A stretch of DNA of 64,000 bases. Origin: Escherichia phage vB_EcoM_112. Position 1 is the stretch's first letter. Each line of letters opens with the position of its first letter. The notes beneath the pieces were generated by a model that did no database searches, was not told where the DNA came from, and saw nothing but the letters and a program-made list of their open reading frames with translations. Location: sequence record NC_024125.2, one strand, 5' to 3'. Below are positions 38,667 through 52,135 of the stretch, in pieces. The translations under genes and the position numbers were made by a program.

Positions 38667-40254
<1,588 letters not shown>

Positions 40255-40261
40255 AATAAAA

Positions 40262-40275
40262 TGGGCCTTACGGCC
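40262..40275 (-). other. GNRA-tetraloop hairpin between nrdB and denA
   Basis: Minus-strand GGGCC-GUAA-GGCCC between the nrdB stop and the denA start. Confidence 0.4.
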
Positions 40276-40281
40276 CACTCC

Positions 40282-40784
40282 TTAAAAATATTTTTTAAAA
40301 CTCATCATAACTTTATCATCAACATCATTATCAATCTGTGCAACAAGGTAAGATGACAGTTCTACTTCTTGTGGCGCGGATTGAACATTATCAGAATTAA
40401 GATATTCACGAATCCAAGGATACGGATGTTTAACCGGAGCATCGGTAATTGGGCATGGAAGACCACACTGTTTCATACGAGATACAGTTAAGTAATCAAT
40501 AAAGCTCCACATGCTATTTGTATTTAATCCAGGAACATCGCCATCTTTAAATAAATGAACTGCCCAATCTTTTTCTTGGCGGTTAACTTCCATGAAAATA
40601 TCAACTGCTTCTTGTTCACACTCTTGAGCAATTTTAACCCATTCATCGCCATCAGTGCCAAGTTGAAGTTGACGAATAATATATTGAGTGCCTTTAAGGT
40701 GAAGCTGCTCATCACGTGCAATGAACTTCATAATCTTGGCATTACCTTCCATGATTTCCATGTTCTTATGGAAGTTGAAAGTAC
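40282..40784 (-). CDS. nrdB: Ribonucleotide reductase small subunit NrdB, exon 2
   Basis: Continues ...SFA|C-TFNFHKNMEIMEGNAKIMKFIARDEQLHL... (compare E. coli SFACSFAFAERELMEGNAK); junction codon TGT is split 1/2 across the intron. Confidence 0.85.
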
Positions 40785-40920
40785 CGTTATGTTCGATTGA
40801 GCTCGCTAATTCTCAACCCGTTCTCTTATGAACTGCTACATATTACTATGCAGACCAGACTATATCACAATCCCAGAGGGATTCTCCCCATTTCGAGTCG
40901 CTTGACCCTACGTCCGAAGA

Positions 40921-41730
40921 CTAGTCGTTGAACCTTGCTTTGCAATTGTCGCCGTGCCATCGTTTATATGTTGATGGTGATAAATCTTTCTTATCACAAT
41001 ATGGACAATTCAATTGAATTCTATTTGGATTTAATTTACATCTGTCATTATGTTTTAGATAAAATCCAGGACCTTTACCAATGTGACCGCAGAAATCACA
41101 TGTGATTTCTTTTTGTGCAGGATGGGTCCCGTTCTTAACCATTTCTAATGTTTTTGCTGATGTTCTTTTCTTATGGTCTTCTGACAAGAAATGATGTGAA
41201 CCGTCATTTACCCGTTTTGATTGAGTTTCTGACTGCATTTTACCACCGCAAAATACATGAGTACCTTCTTTTATAGCTGCAATATTGCGTTCTTTAACTT
41301 TTGCAATATGCTCAGCTTGTTGAAAATTATGTATACCTAATGCAACTCTATTTAAATTAGATTTACGCTGTATTTCACCATCTAAAAGATGAAATGTACC
41401 ATTTTCTATCTTAGATTTAATAGAGGCAATATTTTTAGCTCGTACTTCAGGGATATTAAAAATCTGGATTTCTCTAGATTTTGCGGCTTTAGAAGCTAAT
41501 TCAGAAATTTCTTCAGGAGAATATTTCATTCTAAGCTTTATAGCATGACAAGCCTGGTAATCTTTTTGAGCTAAATGTATATCATAATGTTCCTGTATAG
41601 AAAGGCACATCAAATTATCTAAATCATTATTTTCACGGTTACCGTCTTTATGATGGATTTCGTATGTTCTTCCATCAGAATCTTTAGGTATAGGTCCGTT
41701 AGCATCTATCCAAATTTTTCTATAGTTCAA
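40921..41730 (-). CDS. Intron-encoded HNH homing endonuclease (I-TevIII-like, full length)
   Basis: 269-aa ORF; HNH motif EIHHKDGNRENNDLDNLMCLSIQEHYDIH, C-terminal Cys clusters; apparent TTG start 7 nt after AAGAGGA. Confidence 0.8.
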   Translation of the reverse strand: MNYRKIWIDANGPIPKDSDGRTYEIHHKDGNRENNDLDNLMCLSIQEHYDIHLAQKDYQACHAIKLRMKYSPEEISELASKAAKSREIQIFNIPEVRAKNIASIKSKIENGTFHLLDGEIQRKSNLNRVALGIHNFQQAEHIAKVKERNIAAIKEGTHVFCGGKMQSETQSKRVNDGSHHFLSEDHKKRTSAKTLEMVKNGTHPAQKEITCDFCGHIGKGPGFYLKHNDRCKLNPNRIQLNCPYCDKKDLSPSTYKRWHGDNCKARFND

Positions 41731-41757
41731 TTGTGCATCCTCTTAAAAGTATAATCA

Positions 41758-41765
41758 TATTTATA
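41758..41765 (-). promoter_or_regulatory. T4-type late promoter (TATAAATA on minus strand) inside the nrdB intron
   Basis: Plus-strand TATTTATA about 28 nt upstream of the endonuclease start. Confidence 0.5.
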
Positions 41766-41875
41766 TTATACTAATTAAAGGTGCAAGCAAAACCTTGGCT
41801 GCTAGTTTTCCTATAAAGGACTTTCCAGCAATTAAAGGAGTTTTCGATAAACGTTACCGTTTAAAGGCGCATTTT

Positions 41876-42551
41876 ACGCAAAAGATACATAAAAACGAAT
41901 AGCTTCTAAGGCATTAATAACGTGCAAACAGAGGTAAAGAGATTTCATTAAAGCACGTTTAGCTTCGGCTTCTTGCTTAATAGCTCGGTTTAAACGAAAG
42001 TCGGCATCAGGAGATTCTTTAGCTAGTTCTACAAATTCTTTAGCATTTTCCCATTCACGGGTTTTAACCAAGACATCATCATAATAGCGACCAATAGATT
42101 CAGCACGTTTCATGATAGCTTCATCTAATACAATCTCATCAAATACCTTTGACGGATCAGTATAAAGATTTCGCATGATATGTGTATATGAACGGCTGTG
42201 AATAGTTTCACTAAAAGTCCACGTAGCAATCCATGTATCAAGGCTTGGGTCTGAAATTAATGACATAAGTACAGCAGATGGCGCACGACCCTGAATGCTA
42301 TCCAAAAGTGATTGATACTTCAGATTATTAGTAAAAATATTTTGCTGATACTGAGGAAGCTTATTAAACTGTGCAGCATCCATCATCAAGTTTACTTCTT
42401 CAGGACGCCAGAAAAATGACAACTGCTTTTCGGTCAAATCTTCAAAAACTTTATGACGTTGAATATCATAACGCGCAATACCAAGACCTGAACCAAAAAA
42501 CATGGGTTCTTTTAAAACATCAACTGGATTTGTATTAAAAACTGTGCTCAT
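41876..42551 (-). CDS. nrdB: Ribonucleotide reductase small subunit NrdB, exon 1
   Basis: MSTVFNTNPVDVLKEPMFFG...LEAIRFYVSFA; diiron/tyrosyl-radical R2 fold; frame closes at intron UAA. Confidence 0.9.
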
Positions 42552-42602
42552 AAATTTTCCGCTTAGTTAATAGTTGGTGACTCGTCCGTGAGTCAAATTA
42601 TA

Positions 42603-43592
42603 TCATAATTTACAGGATGAACAATCTTCAGCTTTTGGAGTTTCTATTTCATAATCATCAGTACCAGAACCATCACGGGTATTATGATAATAGAAATTTT
42701 TTCCGCCAAAATACCAGAAATACAAAAGGTCATCAATCATTATTGACATTGGAACCTTTCCTTTAGGGAAGATTTGGGGGTCATAGTATGTATTCGCTGA
42801 AGCTGATTGACATACCCATTTCAGCATAATAGCTACCTGCGTAAGATAAGGTTTATTACCTTTCTTAGCTAATTTCCATGTATAATCATAGAGGTCTATG
42901 TTATGCTCAATATTGGGCACGACTTGATTAAAGGAGCCCTCTTTTGATTCTTTAACAGAGACTGGTCCACGTGGAGGCTCGATACCGTTTGTACTGTTAG
43001 AAACTTGGGAAGATGACTCACATGGCATAAGTGCTGATAATGTGCTATTACGGATGCCAAAGAGCTTAAGGTCTTCCCGCAGCGACGACCAGTCACAAAC
43101 GTATTTTGGAGCTGCGATTTGGTCAATCTTTTTATTGTACCAGTCGATAGGTAGTTCGCCTCGAGACCAACGAGTGTCTGAATAATATTCGCAAGGTCCT
43201 TTTTCTTTGGCGAGCTTAATGGATGCTTTAATGAGTCCATACTGTAATCTCTCAAATAGTTCATGTGTTAAATCGTTAGCATCTTCATAAGAAGCAAAGT
43301 TACTTGCCAGCCAAGCTGCATAGTTAGTAACACCTACACCAAGGTTTCGACGCTTTTTAGCTTTTTCTGCTTCAGGAACTGGATATCCTTGGTAATCCAA
43401 AAGATTATCAAGAGCACGAACTTGAACTTCTGCCAATTCATTAATTTTATCTTGGTCTTGCCAGTCAAAATTATCTAGTACGAATGCAGAGAGAGTACAA
43501 AGCCCCACTTCTCCCTTGTTTTCAATAACTTTTATTGTAGTATACTCATCATCTTCGTAAAATTCATCTACAAATTCATAATCAATATTCAT
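42603..43592 (-). CDS. nrdA: Ribonucleotide reductase large subunit, C-terminal piece (nrdA-b-like), separately initiated
   Basis: 329-aa ORF: 23-aa acidic leader MNIDYEFVDEFYEDDEYTTIKVI then conserved ENKGEVGLCTLSAF... through the C-terminal CSSCKL; ATG overlaps the stop of the HNH ORF. Confidence 0.8.
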   Translation of the reverse strand: MNIDYEFVDEFYEDDEYTTIKVIENKGEVGLCTLSAFVLDNFDWQDQDKINELAEVQVRALDNLLDYQGYPVPEAEKAKKRRNLGVGVTNYAAWLASNFASYEDANDLTHELFERLQYGLIKASIKLAKEKGPCEYYSDTRWSRGELPIDWYNKKIDQIAAPKYVCDWSSLREDLKLFGIRNSTLSALMPCESSSQVSNSTNGIEPPRGPVSVKESKEGSFNQVVPNIEHNIDLYDYTWKLAKKGNKPYLTQVAIMLKWVCQSASANTYYDPQIFPKGKVPMSIMIDDLLYFWYFGGKNFYYHNTRDGSGTDDYEIETPKAEDCSSCKL

Positions 43593-44292
43593 TTAATTCT
43601 TTTACCTTTTTTCTAGTAATTCCTAAAGCTTTAGATGCTCGATGTATTGATTGATATTCTATACCGTTTATTTTTACAGCAATTAAGTTATGGGGTTTTA
43701 ATCCCTTTGGATGAGGTTTACTGACGAAAACTAAATTATCAAGTTCTGAAATCTTATCCAATTTCTTACACTTAAATCCTTTGTGATGCGACCGTTTACC
43801 TTTACAAACGGCTGACATTGCAGATGGATTTAAATTATGCTCTTTACAAAATTCGTTAAGACCTCGATGAATTTCCTCATGACCATCCGGAAATGTAAAC
43901 ACCCAAGATGTTTGAAGTCGAGATTTAACTTCTGGAGACATAGGAATACCTTTGTTCCAAGCTGGTTTGCCTTTATTATTTTCAGATACAGAAATAGCCA
44001 ATTTTCTTCTAAGCCACCCATGGCGTTTATTGGTGTTCTTTCGTTCAATATTATCTTCAGAATAAACACACATCATATTAGCGGCAAATATCAATTTATG
44101 ATTATTTGGATATATCTTTACTAATAATTGATGAGCTATGTAATGCTCTTCTGGTGTCAAATCTACCAGGTTTTCCTTTGTATCAGAACCACCAATACAC
44201 AGAGGTATAATATGGTGTGATTCGGTATAGCAATCTAATTTTCTATTCTTAGCTTTAGAAATAAGGTTATTGTAAATTTTAAAATAATCCAT
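43582..44292 (-). CDS. Free-standing HNH homing endonuclease (MobE-like) inserted within nrdA
   Basis: 236-aa ORF; HNH motif CYTESHHIIPLCIGGSDTKENLVDLTPEEHYIAH; own AGAGGAAAAG SD; lies between the two nrdA pieces. Confidence 0.8.
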   Translation of the reverse strand: MDYFKIYNNLISKAKNRKLDCYTESHHIIPLCIGGSDTKENLVDLTPEEHYIAHQLLVKIYPNNHKLIFAANMMCVYSEDNIERKNTNKRHGWLRRKLAISVSENNKGKPAWNKGIPMSPEVKSRLQTSWVFTFPDGHEEIHRGLNEFCKEHNLNPSAMSAVCKGKRSHHKGFKCKKLDKISELDNLVFVSKPHPKGLKPHNLIAVKINGIEYQSIHRASKALGITRKKVKELNEY

Positions 44293-44337
44293 AACTTTTC
44301 CTCTTGTTATGGATTATTTATTAACGGTCTGTGTACT

Positions 44338-45771
44338 TTATTTGCTTTGAATTATACCGCCAGGATTAGCTTCATAAAACTTAGCTACATCCGACTTCTT
44401 AATTTTGATTAAACGGGTTTGTTGGCTATTCACATCATTTGTTGGAATAGCAATTTCACAGCACAAGTTACTCTGACGAATAGGTGCCTTTTCACGAATA
44501 AATGGAGTATAGTTATTCGTATTATCAATGAACTGCACATAAATCCTTGCTGTTCCTGAACGTTCAGTCATGAGCAATTCAAATAGTTCACGGGCTTTAA
44601 TACGCTTTTTACGAATATTAGGGTCTTTTTCTGCTGCTTCGTATAATTCACGGAAACGGTCTTGGTCTTTAAAATAAGAATAATAAAGCTCGCCACCCAT
44701 TTCATGCGGACTGAACAAAGTAATGTAATCGTTCTTTCCGAATCGTTCCATCATCAAATCATTCAGTTGAACACCATAATCCATATGACGAATGCGGTTT
44801 TCTTCTACGCCTTTGTTATTTTTCAAAACGAGAAGATTTTCAACTTCCAAATGCCAAATAGGATAATAAGCAGTAGCAGCGCCGCCACGAATTCCACCCT
44901 GTGAACATGATTTAACAGCAGTCTGAAAATGTTTCCAAAAAGGAATAACACCAGTATGGCGTACTTCACCCATGCCAATCTTAGAACCTTCAGCACGAAT
45001 CATACCAACGTTAATACCAATTCCAGCGCGTTTAGAGATATATTCAACAATTGAAGCGGAAGCCTTATTGATAGACTTCAATGAATCTCCTGCCTCAATA
45101 ACAACACATGAACTAAACTGTCGAGTCGGAGTACGGCAACCAGCCATAATAGGAGTTGGCAATGAAATCTGTCGAGTAGATACTGCTTCATAAAAACGAA
45201 TAACATGTTTTAATCTATCAACAGGTTCATCTTGATGCAATGCCATTCCAATAGTCATAAATGCAAACTGTGGAGTTTCATAAATTTGACCAGTGGTTTT
45301 ATCTTTAACTAGATATTTTTCTTTTAATTGCATCGCCCCGGAATAAGTAAATTCCATATCCCGTTCGTGCTTAATTTTTGATTCTAAAAATGTAATTTCT
45401 TCTGCTGAATATTTTGACAATAATTCAGGGTCATATTTACCTTCATTTACACAGTAAGAAATATGGTCAATAAATGAACGTGGTTCATACTGCCCATAAA
45501 CATGCTTACGAAGAGCAAACATTAAACAGCGTGCAGCTACATATTGATAATCAGGTTCTTCAACCGAAATAGAATTCGCAGCAGCCTTAATGACAATAGT
45601 CTGAATGTCATCAGTTGTCATTCCATCACGGAGATATGATTTAATATTTTCATATAATTCATAAGGATCTACTGATGTTCCCTCAGCTGCCCAAGATAAA
45701 ACTTTAATAATTTTTTGTGGGTCAAAGCTCTGAGAAACACCACTACTTTTGATAACATTAATTAATTGCAT
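44338..45771 (-). CDS. nrdA: Ribonucleotide reductase large subunit, N-terminal piece (nrdA-a-like)
   Basis: 477-aa [28 protein letters not shown]...; includes ATP-cone, FSSC and SNLCCEIAIPT active-site stretch, then 26 unrelated codons and stop. Confidence 0.85.
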   Translation of the reverse strand: MQLINVIKSSGVSQSFDPQKIIKVLSWAAEGTSVDPYELYENIKSYLRDGMTTDDIQTIVIKAAANSISVEEPDYQYVAARCLMFALRKHVYGQYEPRSFIDHISYCVNEGKYDPELLSKYSAEEITFLESKIKHERDMEFTYSGAMQLKEKYLVKDKTTGQIYETPQFAFMTIGMALHQDEPVDRLKHVIRFYEAVSTRQISLPTPIMAGCRTPTRQFSSCVVIEAGDSLKSINKASASIVEYISKRAGIGINVGMIRAEGSKIGMGEVRHTGVIPFWKHFQTAVKSCSQGGIRGGAATAYYPIWHLEVENLLVLKNNKGVEENRIRHMDYGVQLNDLMMERFGKNDYITLFSPHEMGGELYYSYFKDQDRFRELYEAAEKDPNIRKKRIKARELFELLMTERSGTARIYVQFIDNTNNYTPFIREKAPIRQSNLCCEIAIPTNDVNSQQTRLIKIKKSDVAKFYEANPGGIIQSK

Positions 45772-46088
45772 AAGTCCTCAACTTGAAAATCGTCTTTAAA
45801 CAATCGGTTAACTATATGAGCTATTATATCACCATGACACGGCTTTGGTTTACATGTGCATCCTAGCCTCATTCCACGTAAAGGCTCTAAATGTGCTTTA
45901 GTTATTTCTCCGGATTTAATTCGACGTATAAAATCTTTTTTGAATAATTCAATGGCAGCCTCTCGGCTGCCAGCATCTTTACCGACGTAATTTCCCCAAA
46001 ATGTACCACGGTGAATATTAACATCAAAGTCGGATTTATATTTATTCACTACCCGGCATAAACGGTCCGCGCGGTGATAATTCGGCAT
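45762..46088 (-). CDS. Hypothetical protein, DUF4326-like (T4 nrdA.1 position)
   Basis: 108-aa ORF with ...[10 protein letters not shown]...[13 protein letters not shown]... pattern that I associate with DUF4326 from memory. Confidence 0.6.
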
Positions 46089-46305
46089 ATTGTTTTTCCG
46101 TTAAAACAGTAATATCGTAGTAACAGTCAGAAGAAGTTTTAACTGTGGAAATTTTATTATCAAAATACTCACGAGTCATTTTATGAGTATAATATTTTTT
46201 GCCATAAATGATAATAGGCTGATTTGGTCCTGGAACTTCTAACTCGCTTGGGTTAGGAAGTGTAAAAAGAACTACACCAGAAGTGTCTTTAAATCGTAAA
46301 ATCAT
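46042..46305 (-). CDS. Hypothetical protein (T4 nrdA.2 position)
   Basis: 87-aa ORF; start abuts td stop; 3' end overlaps the next ORF by 47 nt. Confidence 0.55.
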
Positions 46306-46613
46306 ATTGCCATTTTCCCTTTAATTGCTGGATGCGATTCATAATTTTCAAGGATAAAATCTTTCGGTTTCATGTATTCAGTTAACCAGTAAAGCTGTGT
46401 TTCGGTGTCACAATTTCCAAACTCTATAGGCCAATCAATTTTAAGTTCACACAGTTCTTTAGGCTCACGACGTAAAATTTCTTTACATTGCTCAGTATGA
46501 TTCATATAGATGTGAGTATTACCACCAGAAAATATCAAATCTCCTGGGATAAGATTACACATCTTAGCCACAATATGTGTCAAGGCAGCGTACGAGGCAA
46601 TGTTAAACGGTAG
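46302..46613 (-). CDS. td: Thymidylate synthase, exon 2
   Basis: Resumes [25 protein letters not shown]...; intron ends on the G of an AUG immediately before CUA. Confidence 0.9.
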
Positions 46614-47058
46614 CATTATGTTCAGATAAGGTCGTTAATCTTACCCCGGAATTATATCCAGCTGCATGTCACCATGCAGATCAGACTATATCTCCATCTT
46701 GATAAAGCAAGATGTCTATCGTTTCGAGTCACTTGACTCTACTCCCTAAAGGGATAGTCGTTAGGCATTTATGTAGAACCAATTCCAGTTATCAGATTTT
46801 ACACGATAAGTAACTAATCCAGACGAAATTTTAAAATGCCTCTTCCATCTCTTTTCAAAATCTTTAGCACTTCCTACATATACTTTATTGTTTAAAGTAT
46901 TTTTAATCTGATAAATTCCGCTTTTCATAAATACCTCTTTAAATATAGAAGTATTATTAAAGGGCAGTCCTACAATTTAGCACGGGATTGTCTACTAGAG
47001 AGGTTCCCCGTTTAGATAGATTACAAGTATAAGTCACCTTATACTCAGGCCTCAATTA
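46614..47058 (-). mobile_element. Group I intron in td (~445 nt) with an internally deleted endonuclease ORF
   Basis: Exon 1 ends ...UUGGGU, intron begins UAAUUGAGGCCUGAGUAUAAGGUG as recalled for the T4 td intron; length is ~570 nt shorter than the 1016-nt T4 intron. Confidence 0.88.
46761..46928 (-). pseudogene. In-frame deletion remnant of the I-TevI GIY-YIG endonuclease gene
   Basis: 55-aa ORF MKSGIYQIKNTLNNKVYVGSAKDFEKRWKRHFK|ISSGLVTYRVKSDNWNWFYINA = I-TevI residues 1-33 fused to the last 22; below the ORF-track cutoff. Confidence 0.8.
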
Positions 47059-48430
<1,372 letters not shown>

Positions 48431-48440
48431 ATTATTTTCC

Positions 48441-48683
48441 TTAAACAGACTTTTTCACAATTTTCCAATCAGCTTTAAACTGATTAACATCAGAATGATA
48501 AATCCAGAATCCTGCGCTTTCTCCGTCTTCATAAAGAGGACACCCATCGCATTCATCTTCCCATCCCATATCACGTAAAAGATGTTCAGCTTTTTCAACG
48601 AGCTCAGAATCTTTACCGATGATATTAAAATACCATTTACCTCTAACTTCTGAATCTTTGATGCTTTGGCGTTGTAATCTCAT
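48441..48683 (-). CDS. Hypothetical protein (T4 frd.2 position)
   Basis: ORF-track start is GTG; ATG at 48683 with GAGGAGAATAAA SD gives 80 aa. Confidence 0.55.
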   Translation of the reverse strand: MRLQRQSIKDSEVRGKWYFNIIGKDSELVEKAEHLLRDMGWEDECDGCPLYEDGESAGFWIYHSDVNQFKADWKIVKKSV

Positions 48684-48741
48684 TTTATTCTCCTCATGTA
48701 GTTGATAGGGTAATAGTATCACACTACTACCCTACTGTAAA

Positions 48742-49128
48742 CTACTTTTTGAAAGTTTTTCGCAAAAGTTCAATGATTTCATCTACATTGTTTTCGTCTA
48801 CAATGCAGTGAATTTTTGTTACACCAGAAACTATACCTTCATTAGCGGATTGAGGCTTTTCTAAAGTTACCTCAGTAAAGTATTTGAATTCTTCAGAGTA
48901 AATCTCAAAATACGTCTCAAGTGGGCCACCCGCCATGTATTCAGTGCCATCTTCCATAGTTACACGTACCACACATTCACCAGCACAATCATCACTTTCC
49001 ATTTCATCTACAACAAAACTAGGTCCGTGCTTCTCTATTAAATTTAGCATCATTACATTGCAACGGCACTCGTTAGCAAAGTCATTTTTAAATAAAGGGT
49101 TAATGATATAAGTTTTTCCAACTTCCAT
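48742..49128 (-). CDS. Hypothetical acidic protein (T4 frd.3 position)
   Basis: 128-aa ORF, ATG start with GAGGAAATCAAA SD. Confidence 0.6.
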   Translation of the reverse strand: MEVGKTYIINPLFKNDFANECRCNVMMLNLIEKHGPSFVVDEMESDDCAGECVVRVTMEDGTEYMAGGPLETYFEIYSEEFKYFTEVTLEKPQSANEGIVSGVTKIHCIVDENNVDEIIELLRKTFKK

Positions 49129-49174
49129 TTTGATTTCCTCATTTTAACGGGGCTATCAAATAGCCCCTTGATAA

Positions 49175-49402
49175 TTATTGTTCAATCAGTCCCATGTAAA
49201 ATTCTGCGTCTTCAGAACCCATGTCATCACAATATTCATTAGCCATAAAGAGGGTGAGGTCTTCAAGAGGACCTTTAATAACGATTTGAATACTCCAAAA
49301 CTTAGAATCTTGCACGCTTGTGATACTAAGTTCAGGATAACGATTACGAATAATTTCTTCGATATATTCAAAATCAACGATGTCAATATCAACTTTAGCC
49401 AT
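49175..49402 (-). CDS. Hypothetical acidic protein downstream of gene 32
   Basis: ATG at 49402 ([16 protein letters not shown]...) with AGAGGAAAA SD gives 75 aa. Confidence 0.5.
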
Positions 49403-49489
49403 ATTATTTTCCTCTTTAATCATCAGCAGTATTGCCGATAGTTGTATAGTACCATGGAAGGACAAGGATGTAAACAGTTTTGTGAAAAA

Positions 49490-49525
49490 ATTTTTGAAAT
49501 AAAAAAGGGGACCTCTAGGGTCCCC
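49490..49525 (-). terminator. Rho-independent terminator after gene 32
   Basis: Minus-strand GGGGACC-CUAGA-GGUCCCC hairpin followed by UUUUUUAUUUC. Confidence 0.65.
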
Positions 49526-49547
49526 AATTAATTAGTAATATAATCTA

Positions 49548-50453
49548 TTAAAGGTCATTCAAAAGGTCATCCAGGTCCGTGTCATCAGCACTAGATGAAC
49601 TGCCAGAGCTTGAGCTCATAAAATCATCTTCAGTTTTTGTATTGAAGTCATCAACATTGAATGCATCCAAATCATCAGCAACTTTATCAGCTTTCTTAGC
49701 AGCAGTTGCAGCGGCACCGCCCATCACAGCAGTTCCCATGACTTGACCGAATTTAGTATTCAGTTCTTCAAATGATTTGAATTTATCTTTAGAAGTCATT
49801 TCAGAAAGGTCAACCATTTGTTCGAACAGTTCTTTCTGGAAAGATTCATCGTCAATGTTTGGAATCGCAGATTGATTCAGGAATTTAGATTCATCGTAGT
49901 TACTAAATCCAGAAACCTGTTTAACTTTCAGTACAAAGTTAGCACCTTCCCACGGACAAGTTACATCAACTGGAGTTTCACCCATTTCAACATCAACTGC
50001 AATCATTGCATTGATTTTATCCCAGATTTTCTTACCGAAACGGTATTTAAATACTTTACCTTCATTTTCTGGAGCAGCTGGGTCTTTTACAACAAGAATG
50101 TTAGCCCAGTAAGAAGTTTTACGTTTAACAAGACCATACTCTTTATTGTCAGTGTTGTACAGATCATTTTTACTGATGTATTGACATACTGGGCAAGAAT
50201 CGTAATCACCATGGGTAGATGAACATGTTTCAATATACCATTTACCATTTTTCTTGAAACCGTGATTTACAAGAATTGCGAATGGTGCTTGTTCATCATT
50301 TTTAGACGGAAGAAAACGAATTACTGCTTGACCGTTACCCGCATTATCGAGTTTCAGTTTCCACTCGCCTTTATCTTCAGAAGAAAAACCTTTATTGCCA
50401 TTCAGTTTAGCCATTTGTGCAGCAAGTTCAGCAGTAGATTTACGTTTAAACAT
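49548..50453 (-). CDS. 32: Single-stranded DNA-binding protein gp32
   Basis: 301-aa [26 protein letters not shown]...; acidic Ser/Asp-rich C-terminus; matches T4 gp32. Confidence 0.96.
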
Positions 50454-50505
50454 TTTATTTCCTTTTTAATTTAATTTAATTTAATTAACAGTTGGTGCTA
50501 TGACA
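50454..50505 (-). promoter_or_regulatory. Gene 32 translational operator (autoregulatory leader)
   Basis: mRNA leader reads ...GUUAAUUAAAUUAAAUUAAAUUAAAAAGGAAAUAAAAUG: repeated UUAAA units upstream of the SD, as described for T4 gene 32. Confidence 0.7.
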
Positions 50506-50512
50506 CTTTACC

Positions 50513-51145
50513 TCATAGCTGGCATAATTCGCAATACTCTGGGTCTTCGAGAGGTATCCAACCTGAGTTGAAATACTTTACCATCGATTTAGCAGTTGTA
50601 TCAGTTATATTTATATTACCTTTAACTCTTCGCCATCCAGGAGTTTTACCGTACAGATTAGAGGATAATAATAACACATAATTCTCGTAAGCAATATGAG
50701 ATAATTTCCAAGACTCTATATTAGCTCGTGATGTTTTCCAAGGTCTAAAATCGTCACGGTTCATATAATTAGCCAATCTCATATGCTCTCTAACTTCCGG
50801 GTCTTTGGCTGGATGAGTTTCACCACTCACACCAAATCCACCACCAGCATATACCAGATTAAAATAGTCTGGATTATCTCTGGCATTTACTTCAAGTTGG
50901 TATTTTCGTTCTGCTTCAATAACATCCAAGTCATCATCAATTTGAATTATTTTAACGCTCGGTTTTTGAAGCATTAGCGCATTCAAAAATCTTTTTTGTT
51001 TACATGAGCTCCAGTATTCCTTTCCGGAAGAGTCATATATTATTCCGTTCTCAAATGAGCAATTTAATTTACTACCGATATAGTAGTATGGCGGAGTCTT
51101 ATTTTTGACACGGTCTTCAAATGTAAACCAATATACTATATTCAT
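50513..51145 (-). CDS. Putative GIY-YIG homing endonuclease (SegG-like, by position between genes 32 and 59)
   Basis: 210-aa ORF; N-terminal IVYWFTF...YYIGSK resembles GIY...YIG, later ...VIEAERKYQLEVNARDNPDYFNL; assignment partly positional. Confidence 0.5.
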   Translation of the reverse strand: MNIVYWFTFEDRVKNKTPPYYYIGSKLNCSFENGIIYDSSGKEYWSSCKQKRFLNALMLQKPSVKIIQIDDDLDVIEAERKYQLEVNARDNPDYFNLVYAGGGFGVSGETHPAKDPEVREHMRLANYMNRDDFRPWKTSRANIESWKLSHIAYENYVLLLSSNLYGKTPGWRRVKGNINITDTTAKSMVKYFNSGWIPLEDPEYCELCQL

Positions 51146-51146
51146 A

Positions 51147-51800
51147 TCAATACTTACAAGATTTCACAGTTTCAATGAAAACATTTTTAGCTTTCTGTGA
51201 ATCAATATTTAAAATTTTTCTATAAGCCTTTAACTTTATAGAATAATTATTCCAGACTAAATTATCAGTCTGTTCATCATGTTTATCAATTATATTTAAA
51301 AACGAATCAAGCAAGATAAACGTCTCAAACGAAATTATATTCGATTGTAGAAGTTTAAAAATATAACTTGACTGAACCTTTGGATTATATTCAAAGATTT
51401 CTTTAAAAGCAGAAACTTCAACTTTTTTACTAAAATAATAAATGTTGCGAATATCTTCTTCAAACTTAAATTTAATTTGCTTTAAGCGTCCGATATATTC
51501 ACGATAAAACACAAGTGCATCAGCGTCAGAGATGTCACCAATCCAAGCATCTTGGTTAGCAACCAAATTACTTATAAAAATTAAAGCAAGTTCCTTTAAT
51601 TTATATTTTTCTGATAACTTCTGGAAAAAATACTTATCCCTTCGCTTTTGATAAGCGGCATCAGACACCCGCATGCACCAATTATACTTAATTACATCAT
51701 ACTTTCCATTCATATGCTGTTTTATCATTAAGTATAATTTATAAACTGATTTACCATCAATGTATCTTTCACCACCAGCAGGCATGCGGAGTTTAATCAT
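51147..51800 (-). CDS. 59: Helicase loader gp59
   Basis: 217-aa ORF MIKLRMPAGGERYIDGKSVYKLYLMIKQH...; matches T4 gp59. Confidence 0.93.
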   Translation of the reverse strand: MIKLRMPAGGERYIDGKSVYKLYLMIKQHMNGKYDVIKYNWCMRVSDAAYQKRRDKYFFQKLSEKYKLKELALIFISNLVANQDAWIGDISDADALVFYREYIGRLKQIKFKFEEDIRNIYYFSKKVEVSAFKEIFEYNPKVQSSYIFKLLQSNIISFETFILLDSFLNIIDKHDEQTDNLVWNNYSIKLKAYRKILNIDSQKAKNVFIETVKSCKY

Positions 51801-52135
51801 AGCAGAAAATCTAATGTATTAGTTTTTTCACAACGAACAACAGAAGGACGTAAAAGATTTTCGTCAATAGCTTCTGACTGAATTTTTTCAATTATACCCG
51901 AAGGAATAAATTTAGCAAATTGAGTTTCAGGAATAGAATTTTCTTCCAAGAATGCTGTCGTAGCTTCAAGATAACTCATTCCAAACTCTTCTACCATTTT
52001 TTCAATAATAAATCCATTTTCTTGACGATCAAGAAGCTTTGCTATTTCATCCTTTTCTTTCTTAATTGAAAGTTCTTTTTCTGAAAGACCGGTCTCATCG
52101 ACCGGACGAATATCATTTAGAGAAAACTGTGTCAT
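51797..52135 (-). CDS. 33: Late transcription co-activator gp33
   Basis: ATG at 52135 (MTQFSLNDIRPVDETG...) gives 112 aa as T4 gp33; the track start is 3 codons upstream. Confidence 0.88.
   Translation of the reverse strand: MTQFSLNDIRPVDETGLSEKELSIKKEKDEIAKLLDRQENGFIIEKMVEEFGMSYLEATTAFLEENSIPETQFAKFIPSGIIEKIQSEAIDENLLRPSVVRCEKTNTLDFLL

Follow-up and report, generated by a model that had tools for sequence, protein, structure and literature searches.

A td group I intron of Escherichia phage vB_EcoM_112 with I-TevI reduced to 55 codons by a 570-nt deletion between direct repeats, a probable recurrent deletion hotspot

The window (the whole stretch of DNA analysed, 64 kb in length) is a segment of a T4-like (Tequatrovirus-type) phage genome, and over 22 kb is about 96% identical to the nearest records. 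The minus strand of the window carries frd, td, nrdA.2, nrdA.1, nrdA and nrdB. The thymidylate synthase gene, td, is interrupted. Exon 1 (47059..47607, minus strand; 549 nt, 183 codons) ends at its 3′ end in UUGGGU, as placed by the open reading frame (ORF) list and by a junction identical to that of T4 and U5, and exon 2, including the stop codon (46302..46613, minus strand), begins with CUACCG. Between them lies a group I intron of 445 nt (46614..47058, minus strand), equivalent to the T4/U5-type td intron minus 570 nt of the I-TevI ORF. The end of exon 1 (...TTCTTGGGT) is followed by the intron start TAATTGAGGCC (in its longer form, UAAUUGAGGCC), and the intron closes with ...AACATAATG (AAUG), after which CTACCG of exon 2 follows.

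A reading made earlier from the sequence alone (the sequence-only reading) held that td is interrupted at the T4 td intron site by an intron of about 445 nt, compared with 1016 nt in T4. Alignment bears out both points, as the junction is identical to T4 and U5 and the length is exactly 445 nt. Full-length T4-type td introns (U5, G8) are 1016 nt, and that of the T4 RefSeq is 1017 nt because of one extra T. This extra T (GGACTTGCC, at intron position ~93 of L001, T4 RefSeq NC_000866.4/AF158101.6) is present in no other td intron compared, other T4 isolates included, and may be a reference-specific variant or an error.

The insertion site, between VFLG and LPFNIAS, is identical to that of T4, and the reading frame is restored after removal of the intron: joining the exons in silico gives a full-length Td of 286 aa with 85% identity to T4 Td. 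The exon sequence UUGGGU, which is the published td P1 substrate (PMC2729099), pairs with the internal guide GCCUGA to form P1, the last pair being U.G at the 5′ splice site. A G to A change in this exon sequence in a second, divergent phage (L013, described below) is matched by changes in its guide sequence. In the closest full-genome relatives (G8, Lutter, PTE-Eco15 and the Pu-Krd-SF series), the td region is ~2389 nt long compared with 1401 nt in the query, that is, ~418 nt beyond the 570-nt I-TevI segment, and this excess is a further insertion or a divergent segment somewhere in frd-td-nrdA.2.

Inside the intron is a 55-aa ORF (46761..46928, minus strand; MKSGIYQIKNTLNNKVYVGSAKDFEKRWKRHFKISSGLVTYRVKSDNWNWFYINA), the product of which is identical to YP_009030844.1 of vB_EcoM_112. 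It consists of I-TevI residues 1–33 joined to residues 224–245, as seen in the ORF list, by tblastn, and by partial PDB and Pfam matches. Searching the window by tblastn with T4 I-TevI returned two pieces only, residues 1–33 (46928..46830, 100% identity) and residues 220–245 (46841..46764), which overlap by the 12 nt coding for RHFK; no further I-TevI-like sequence was found by this search in the whole 64-kb window. The retained segments show 96–100% identity to T4 I-TevI in protein, and ~99% in DNA, and the protein identity of both indicates homology rather than chance. The proposal that the ORF fuses the first 33 to the last 22 residues of I-TevI is therefore upheld by the tblastn pieces and the ORF coordinates, and the remnant retains its start, frame, Shine-Dalgarno sequence and stop, as had been suggested.

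Alignment of the intron with those of T4 (L001) and U5 (L004), made by splitting the short and long sequences at the repeat, shows one contiguous gap of exactly 570 nt (190 codons). In T4/U5 its endpoints are two copies of CATTTTAAA, starting at I-TevI codons 31 and 221. The left copy is preceded by AGG and the right by AGA, and the two encode R30-H31-F32-K33 and R220-H221-F222-K223; the repeat is 9 nt, or 11/12 nt when the preceding AGG/AGA is counted. One of the RHFK copies is in the GIY-YIG domain and the other in the C-terminal helix-turn-helix. A single CATTTTAAA (His-Phe-Lys; 46830..46838, minus strand) survives in the window, with the AGG of the left copy upstream and the ATTTCG of the right copy downstream, placing the crossover inside the 9-nt repeat. 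A single deletion between RHFK-coding repeats had been proposed, with an alignment to the T4 td intron as its check, and the alignment and tblastn results agree with it in every respect: one gap, with both ends in the mapped repeats.

In the T4/U5 ORF, the 9-mer ties for the longest direct repeat, its copies being 570 nt apart. The only longer repeat in the T4/U5 intron is 12 nt, and a deletion there would abolish splicing because one copy is inside the ribozyme core. Both RHFK repeats code for the same residues in the same frame, so that in-frame fusion is automatic, and retention of the frame is no evidence for selection.

Little of the endonuclease is left. The N-terminal part matches residues 1–33 only of the 97-residue catalytic-domain construct (1MK0/1LN0), and the C-terminal part matches only the last 26 residues of the DNA-binding domain (1I3J); this match is 26 rather than 22 residues because RHFK is common to both repeats. 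Pfam detects partial GIY-YIG and partial I-TevI_DNA-bd domains in the remnant, with no match to I-TevI_ZnF. Of the complete GIY-YIG catalytic domain (approximately residues 1–92), only residues 1–33 are present, and E75 and N90, which are invariant in 12 diverse I-TevI homologues, are both deleted. Of the zinc-finger linker and DNA-binding domain (130–245), only 224–245 is left. The losses thus include about two-thirds of the GIY-YIG domain, the linker, the zinc finger and most of the DNA-binding domain, and the remnant therefore cannot be an endonuclease. Judged from its sequence, it is a decaying pseudo-ORF predicted to be without nuclease or DNA-binding capacity. The working endonuclease, encoded or linked, that marks a mobile intron is not found here. 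The sequence-only reading had also called the intron naturally endonuclease-less and homing-incompetent. The former is confirmed, with only residues 1–33 and 224–245 kept and no other I-TevI in 64 kb, while the latter stands in cis but not in trans, copying into a cut td being possible with the I-TevI of a co-infecting phage.

Two neighbouring genes are also interrupted. The nrdA gene (42603..45771, minus strand) is in two ORFs, an N-terminal part of 477 aa (44338..45771, minus strand) with the ATP-cone, all-alpha domains and barrel profile positions 1–221, and a C-terminal part of 329 aa (42603..43592, minus strand) with barrel positions 219–523. An HNH/NUMOD-like endonuclease ORF of 236 aa (43582..44292, minus strand) lies between them. 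The annotation of several related phages lists two nrdA genes, and the split arrangement resembles the 'gene in pieces' nrdA of Aeromonas phage Aeh1. Interrupted nrdB (40282..42551, minus strand) has exon ORFs at 41874..42551 and 40282..40761, with an HNH_3 ORF of 269 aa (40921..41730, minus strand) between them. The latter is about the size of a complete HNH enzyme, such as that of RB3, as opposed to the short relic of T4. With a whole-sized nrdB HNH ORF and a deleted I-TevI, the window would therefore hold the reverse of the T4 combination, I-TevIII being apparently whole.

The ribozyme appears to have come through the deletion unharmed. Outside the gap the intron is ~98–99% identical to the T4/U5 td intron, and each of its nucleotides has an identical counterpart in a full-length intron of T4 or U5 type, leaving zero private changes. 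The 3′ half of the intron belongs to the rare U5 type; one of its hairpins has a compensatory A-U to U-A exchange, and a second has A-U in place of G.U. The full Rfam group I model (RF00028, Intron_gpI; positions 1–253) aligns at 46662..47068 (minus strand) with 40 bits and an E-value of 8.8e-9, below the gathering score of 50; at the gathering threshold there was no Rfam match in 40000..52000, and the group I model surfaces only by an E-value threshold. In this whole-model alignment, for all that its score is below 50, the core helices P3–P9 are in canonical order and the remnant ORF sits in a P6 loop insertion. The intron is assigned to group I mainly by its near-identity in sequence to the characterised T4 intron, the lineage of which we take from the literature to be subgroup IA2. 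The MFE z-score of the intron is −4.0. A consensus fold of six deleted introns, including the divergent one, contains eight pairs with compensatory changes, located in P2-like, hairpin, P7.x-like and P9.x-like helices, and the covarying helices are seen relative to the divergent L013 intron. The absence of private changes, the end-to-end Rfam match and the full-length spliced Td all support the earlier suggestion that the ribozyme core is intact.

The consensus fold also accounts for the part of the ORF that was spared. The last ORF codons (W-F-Y-I; GGUUCUACA, 46772..46780, minus strand) form the 3′ strand of a P6-type helix, pairing with the partner strand UGUAGGACU (46966..46974, minus strand) at columns 91–99 with 286–294. 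The 3′ end of the I-TevI ORF is known to contribute essential intron structure (PMC2988022). As the tail forms this strand, it would have to be kept in any viable deletion. Laboratory td introns of 246–341 nt self-splice (PMC2729099), and the ORF-deleted td-delta1-3 is the standard homing-negative donor control in crosses (PMC1865063). Given the sequence and these laboratory introns, it is well grounded to expect that the 445-nt intron should self-splice.

Upstream of the remnant, a hairpin (AAUACUUCU/AGAGGUAUU; 46930..46955, minus strand), found in both the MFE and consensus folds, buries the Shine-Dalgarno sequence of the ORF. It is intact, with two compensatory pairs relative to the L013 lineage (columns 117/130 and 118/129). 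A late-promoter-like box (46952..46958, minus strand) carries a 1-nt deletion (delA), reading AATAAATA in full-length alleles and AATAATA here; its identification as a promoter presumes the T4 late-promoter consensus. The assignment of the hairpin as the I-TevI translational-control hairpin follows PMC2988022, which also places a late promoter and I-TevI operator directly upstream of the ORF. Most T4-type deleted alleles, that of the window included, carry delA, which was found in deleted alleles only. Within the phage collection, its exact version is confined to two phages with the 570-nt deletion (delta570), G28 and FL18, and the intact 41-mer around the box is exact in 139 of 160 matching phage records. 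From this distribution, we infer that delA probably reflects decay or silencing of expression signals after the death of the ORF.

A survey of related phages for the same deletion had been recommended, and the deletion was found in several. The 41-nt junction is present in the complete genomes of vB_EcoM_F1/FN, FL18 (classified as Mosigvirus) and G28, in which the 55-aa ORF bears the label 'homing endonuclease' or 'hypothetical protein'; the former is a mis-annotation carried by several deposited genomes. The deleted allele was read in at least 20 metagenome contigs (sewage, pig gut and others). Seven variants make up the remnant protein cluster, with roughly 60 contigs listed for them; the commonest variant (P0011, S20N) is on 37. 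I-TevI sequence is carried by ~212 phage records, making the deleted form a minority allele of a few percent. The exact junction pattern gave 0 matches in IMG/VR and JGI metagenome contigs; IMG/VR is a poor denominator, with one contig only having the full-length left junction, and protein-identity look-ups were far more productive than junction pattern scans.

The td records of LZ2, U5 and T6 (1877 nt), which we attribute to Sandegren and Sjoberg 2004, are full length and none matches the junction. The abstract of that study reportedly describes inactivating deletions in several HEGs of T-even introns. The genome announcement of vB_EcoM_112 makes no mention of a truncated I-TevI. According to two reviews (PMC2993671, PMC2988022), each of the three T-even introns encodes an HEG of its own, nrdB alone holding a relic; neither review mentions an ORF-deleted td intron. 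The deleted td allele is already deposited, yet apparently undiscussed.

Other decayed forms of I-TevI were seen in metagenomes (P0003–P0006, P0024, P0026, P0030 and P0032). They include 56–73-aa forms that diverge or stop after approximately residue 55–60, and N- or C-terminal fragments of 151–184 aa. In Escherichia phage ph0021, an 83-aa product (P0007) begins as a DUF5417-type ORF and switches, at a common Cys-Asp-Gly, to the C-terminal 37 residues of I-TevI, corresponding to window positions 48441..48722 and 46761..~46870 (both minus strand). A DUF5417-type ORF lies upstream of frd, and the fusion looks like the product of a ~2-kb microhomology deletion, in which frd, the first td exon and the intron's 5′ half would have been lost. 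Two contigs with a deleted intron (L022:1758-1968 and L024:1782-1968, minus strand in the locus) have a GIY-YIG ORF of 243 aa immediately downstream of nrdA.2 and on the other strand, a candidate free-standing endonuclease close to td.

The same loss is found in a second intron lineage, that of the divergent phage. The Logan contig L013 derives from a different T4-like phage, with td exons 68–80% identical to those of the window and with other genes as neighbours. The td intron of L013, 440 nt long, encodes a 55-aa remnant (P0002) that is 89% identical to that of the window and has the same kind of junction. Over the parts that it retains, P0002 shows 100% identity to P0016, a divergent full-length I-TevI that is 78% identical to that of T4 and is carried on a second contig, L014. 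In L014, AGACATTTTAA (11 nt, the longest direct repeat of that ORF) occurs twice, 570 nt apart, and when the stretch between the two copies is taken out in silico, what is left matches the L013 intron over 398 nt with 0 mismatches. Between T4-type deleted and T4-type full-length alleles, identity is ~99%. Together, these matches indicate at least two independent deletions at the same repeat pair. The deleted allele is therefore not peculiar to the vB_EcoM_112 genome and has arisen more than once, and the compared sequences point to the RHFK repeat pair as a recurrent deletion hotspot. The JM10-type I-TevI has a 9-nt repeat at the same places, and no deleted form of it was found in a small sampling. 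Repeat length is accordingly not supported as a predictor of the lineages that bear deletions.

The history of the T4-type deleted introns is more tangled. They fall into at least seven haplotypes, U5-type and T4-type 3′ halves are each found with and without delA, and sites on either side of the junction show all four gametes. The introns are at least 98% alike, whereas divergence of the td exons around them reaches 16% in exon 1 and 28% in exon 2. The four gametes, and like introns in unlike exons, require recombination. The haplotype pattern is compatible with repeated deletion after homing, or with the spread of an already deleted intron, and for the T4-type alleles, one origin plus recombination and several origins are both compatible with the data. 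Spread after the deletion is mildly favoured, as different backgrounds have delA plus delta570 in common.

Taken further, the deleted intron could be a non-autonomous mobile element that serves as the repair template when an endonuclease from a co-infecting phage or a neighbouring gene cuts an intronless td, in which case it would owe its persistence to more than passive decay. The delA plus delta570 double haplotype, which was seen in no full-length allele, and its presence between strongly differing td exons would both fit this proposal, as would the recombination around the junction. Defunct or ORF-less phage introns are known to be mobilised by free-standing endonucleases, in collaborative or trans homing (PMC3984707, PMC2790892), and the td intron resembles them in having no working HEG and, by conjecture, in being open to mobilisation by an endonuclease made elsewhere. 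However, delA is slippage within three consecutive A's and may have happened more than once, the more so if it is advantageous in an allele with a dead ORF; exon mosaicism could also result from homing of the full-length intron first, followed by repeated deletion at the hotspot; and T-even phages recombine freely, such that ordinary crossover would suffice without an endonuclease. The window shows no evident free-standing endonuclease dedicated to the td insertion site; the HNH ORF inside nrdA is ~2.3 kb away and is absent from G28. Non-autonomous mobility is possible but, in our estimation, rather less likely than not. A bolder version, in which one delA plus delta570 haplotype, far from being a dead end, has spread through divergent td alleles of several phage genera since its loss of I-TevI, by means of foreign I-TevI or recombination in mixed infections, with the conserved RHFK repeat acting as a recurrent self-destruct site for the endonuclease gene, can be advanced only tentatively.

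It is very unlikely that the 55-aa ORF has been kept as a functional small protein, for example as an inhibitor of I-TevI or as a regulator. All of the deleted alleles read have an intact ORF, the hairpin sequestering its Shine-Dalgarno sequence is conserved and both Pfam domains still score, but intactness carries little meaning where the RHFK repeat pair retains the frame automatically and the ORF tail is constrained as RNA (the P6 3′ strand). What is kept amounts to one third of a nuclease fold and half of a helix-turn-helix, and the presumed late promoter is damaged in most alleles. The deleted alleles carry T11I, S20N, K33T and V43I against one synonymous change, so that substitutions are mostly non-synonymous, and they fall at otherwise invariant residues (S20 and V233 are invariant in the 12 diverse homologues). 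Small as these numbers are, the pattern looks like relaxed constraint. An artefact of assembly or laboratory passage is barely credible, for while repeat deletions can in general arise in culture, the identical junction is present in independently sequenced isolates and in many uncultured metagenome assemblies from different studies, and a 9-nt repeat is far shorter than an assembler k-mer, which excludes an assembly artefact.

The reading that best explains the observations, to which we assign a probability of about 0.88, is that of a T4/U5-type td group I intron in which the HEG has been gutted by a 570-nt deletion between direct repeats, at a hotspot that recurs across lineages. To judge from the repeats, the deletion would have occurred by replication slippage or by microhomology-mediated illegitimate recombination between the 9-nt copies. 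It takes out only dispensable P6-loop sequence and leaves in place the 5′ core, the regulatory hairpin and those closing codons of the ORF that form a core helix, so that the intron would still self-splice and give full-length thymidylate synthase. Autonomous homing would be lost by the 445-nt intron. It would still split the I-TevI homing site, and so should shield td from the I-TevI of co-infecting phages, and it may spread by ordinary recombination or with I-TevI acting in trans. At least two intron lineages underwent this deletion independently of each other, and the deleted allele of T4 type now appears on many haplotypes and in divergent td backgrounds.

The closest precedent is I-TevIII of the T4 nrdB intron, which is a natural internal-deletion derivative of the RB3 version (Eddy and Gold 1991, as cited in PMC2790892 and PMC1865063). 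Both cases involve a T-even group I intron in a gene of nucleotide metabolism, loss of the catalytic part of the HEG by internal deletion, and a full-length sister allele in related phages; the nrdB ribozyme works, and that of td is predicted to. Unlike I-TevIII, an H-N-H enzyme of nrdB, the td case concerns a GIY-YIG endonuclease, the remnant retains both ends of the ORF, the endpoints are a defined direct repeat, and the deletion is recurrent. The laboratory ORF-deleted td introns (the 246–341-nt variants of Galloway Salvo et al. 1990, as cited in PMC2729099) are likewise the same intron minus most of the L6 ORF, and these constructs self-splice and are homing-negative. They are engineered and have other endpoints, whereas the present allele is natural and keeps the promoter/hairpin region and 168 nt of the ORF.

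In the HEG life cycle of invasion, fixation, degeneration and loss (the yeast omega model, discussed for phages in PMC2988022), the deleted td allele fits the predicted stage of a degenerate HEG in a functional intron, and other decayed I-TevI alleles coexist with it. The model predicts no preferred path of deletion, whereas here a conserved intragenic repeat appears to channel decay. For the best-studied phage intron-endonuclease pair, the deleted td/I-TevI is the equivalent of I-TevIII, and represents an expected stage of decay. What is new is the exact repeat endpoints, the recurrence seen through the sister pair L013/L014, and a natural population of deleted alleles on many haplotypes. These open to testing the rate of HEG loss, whether loss is channelled by gene architecture, and whether the deleted intron may persist by cleavage immunity or by homing in trans.
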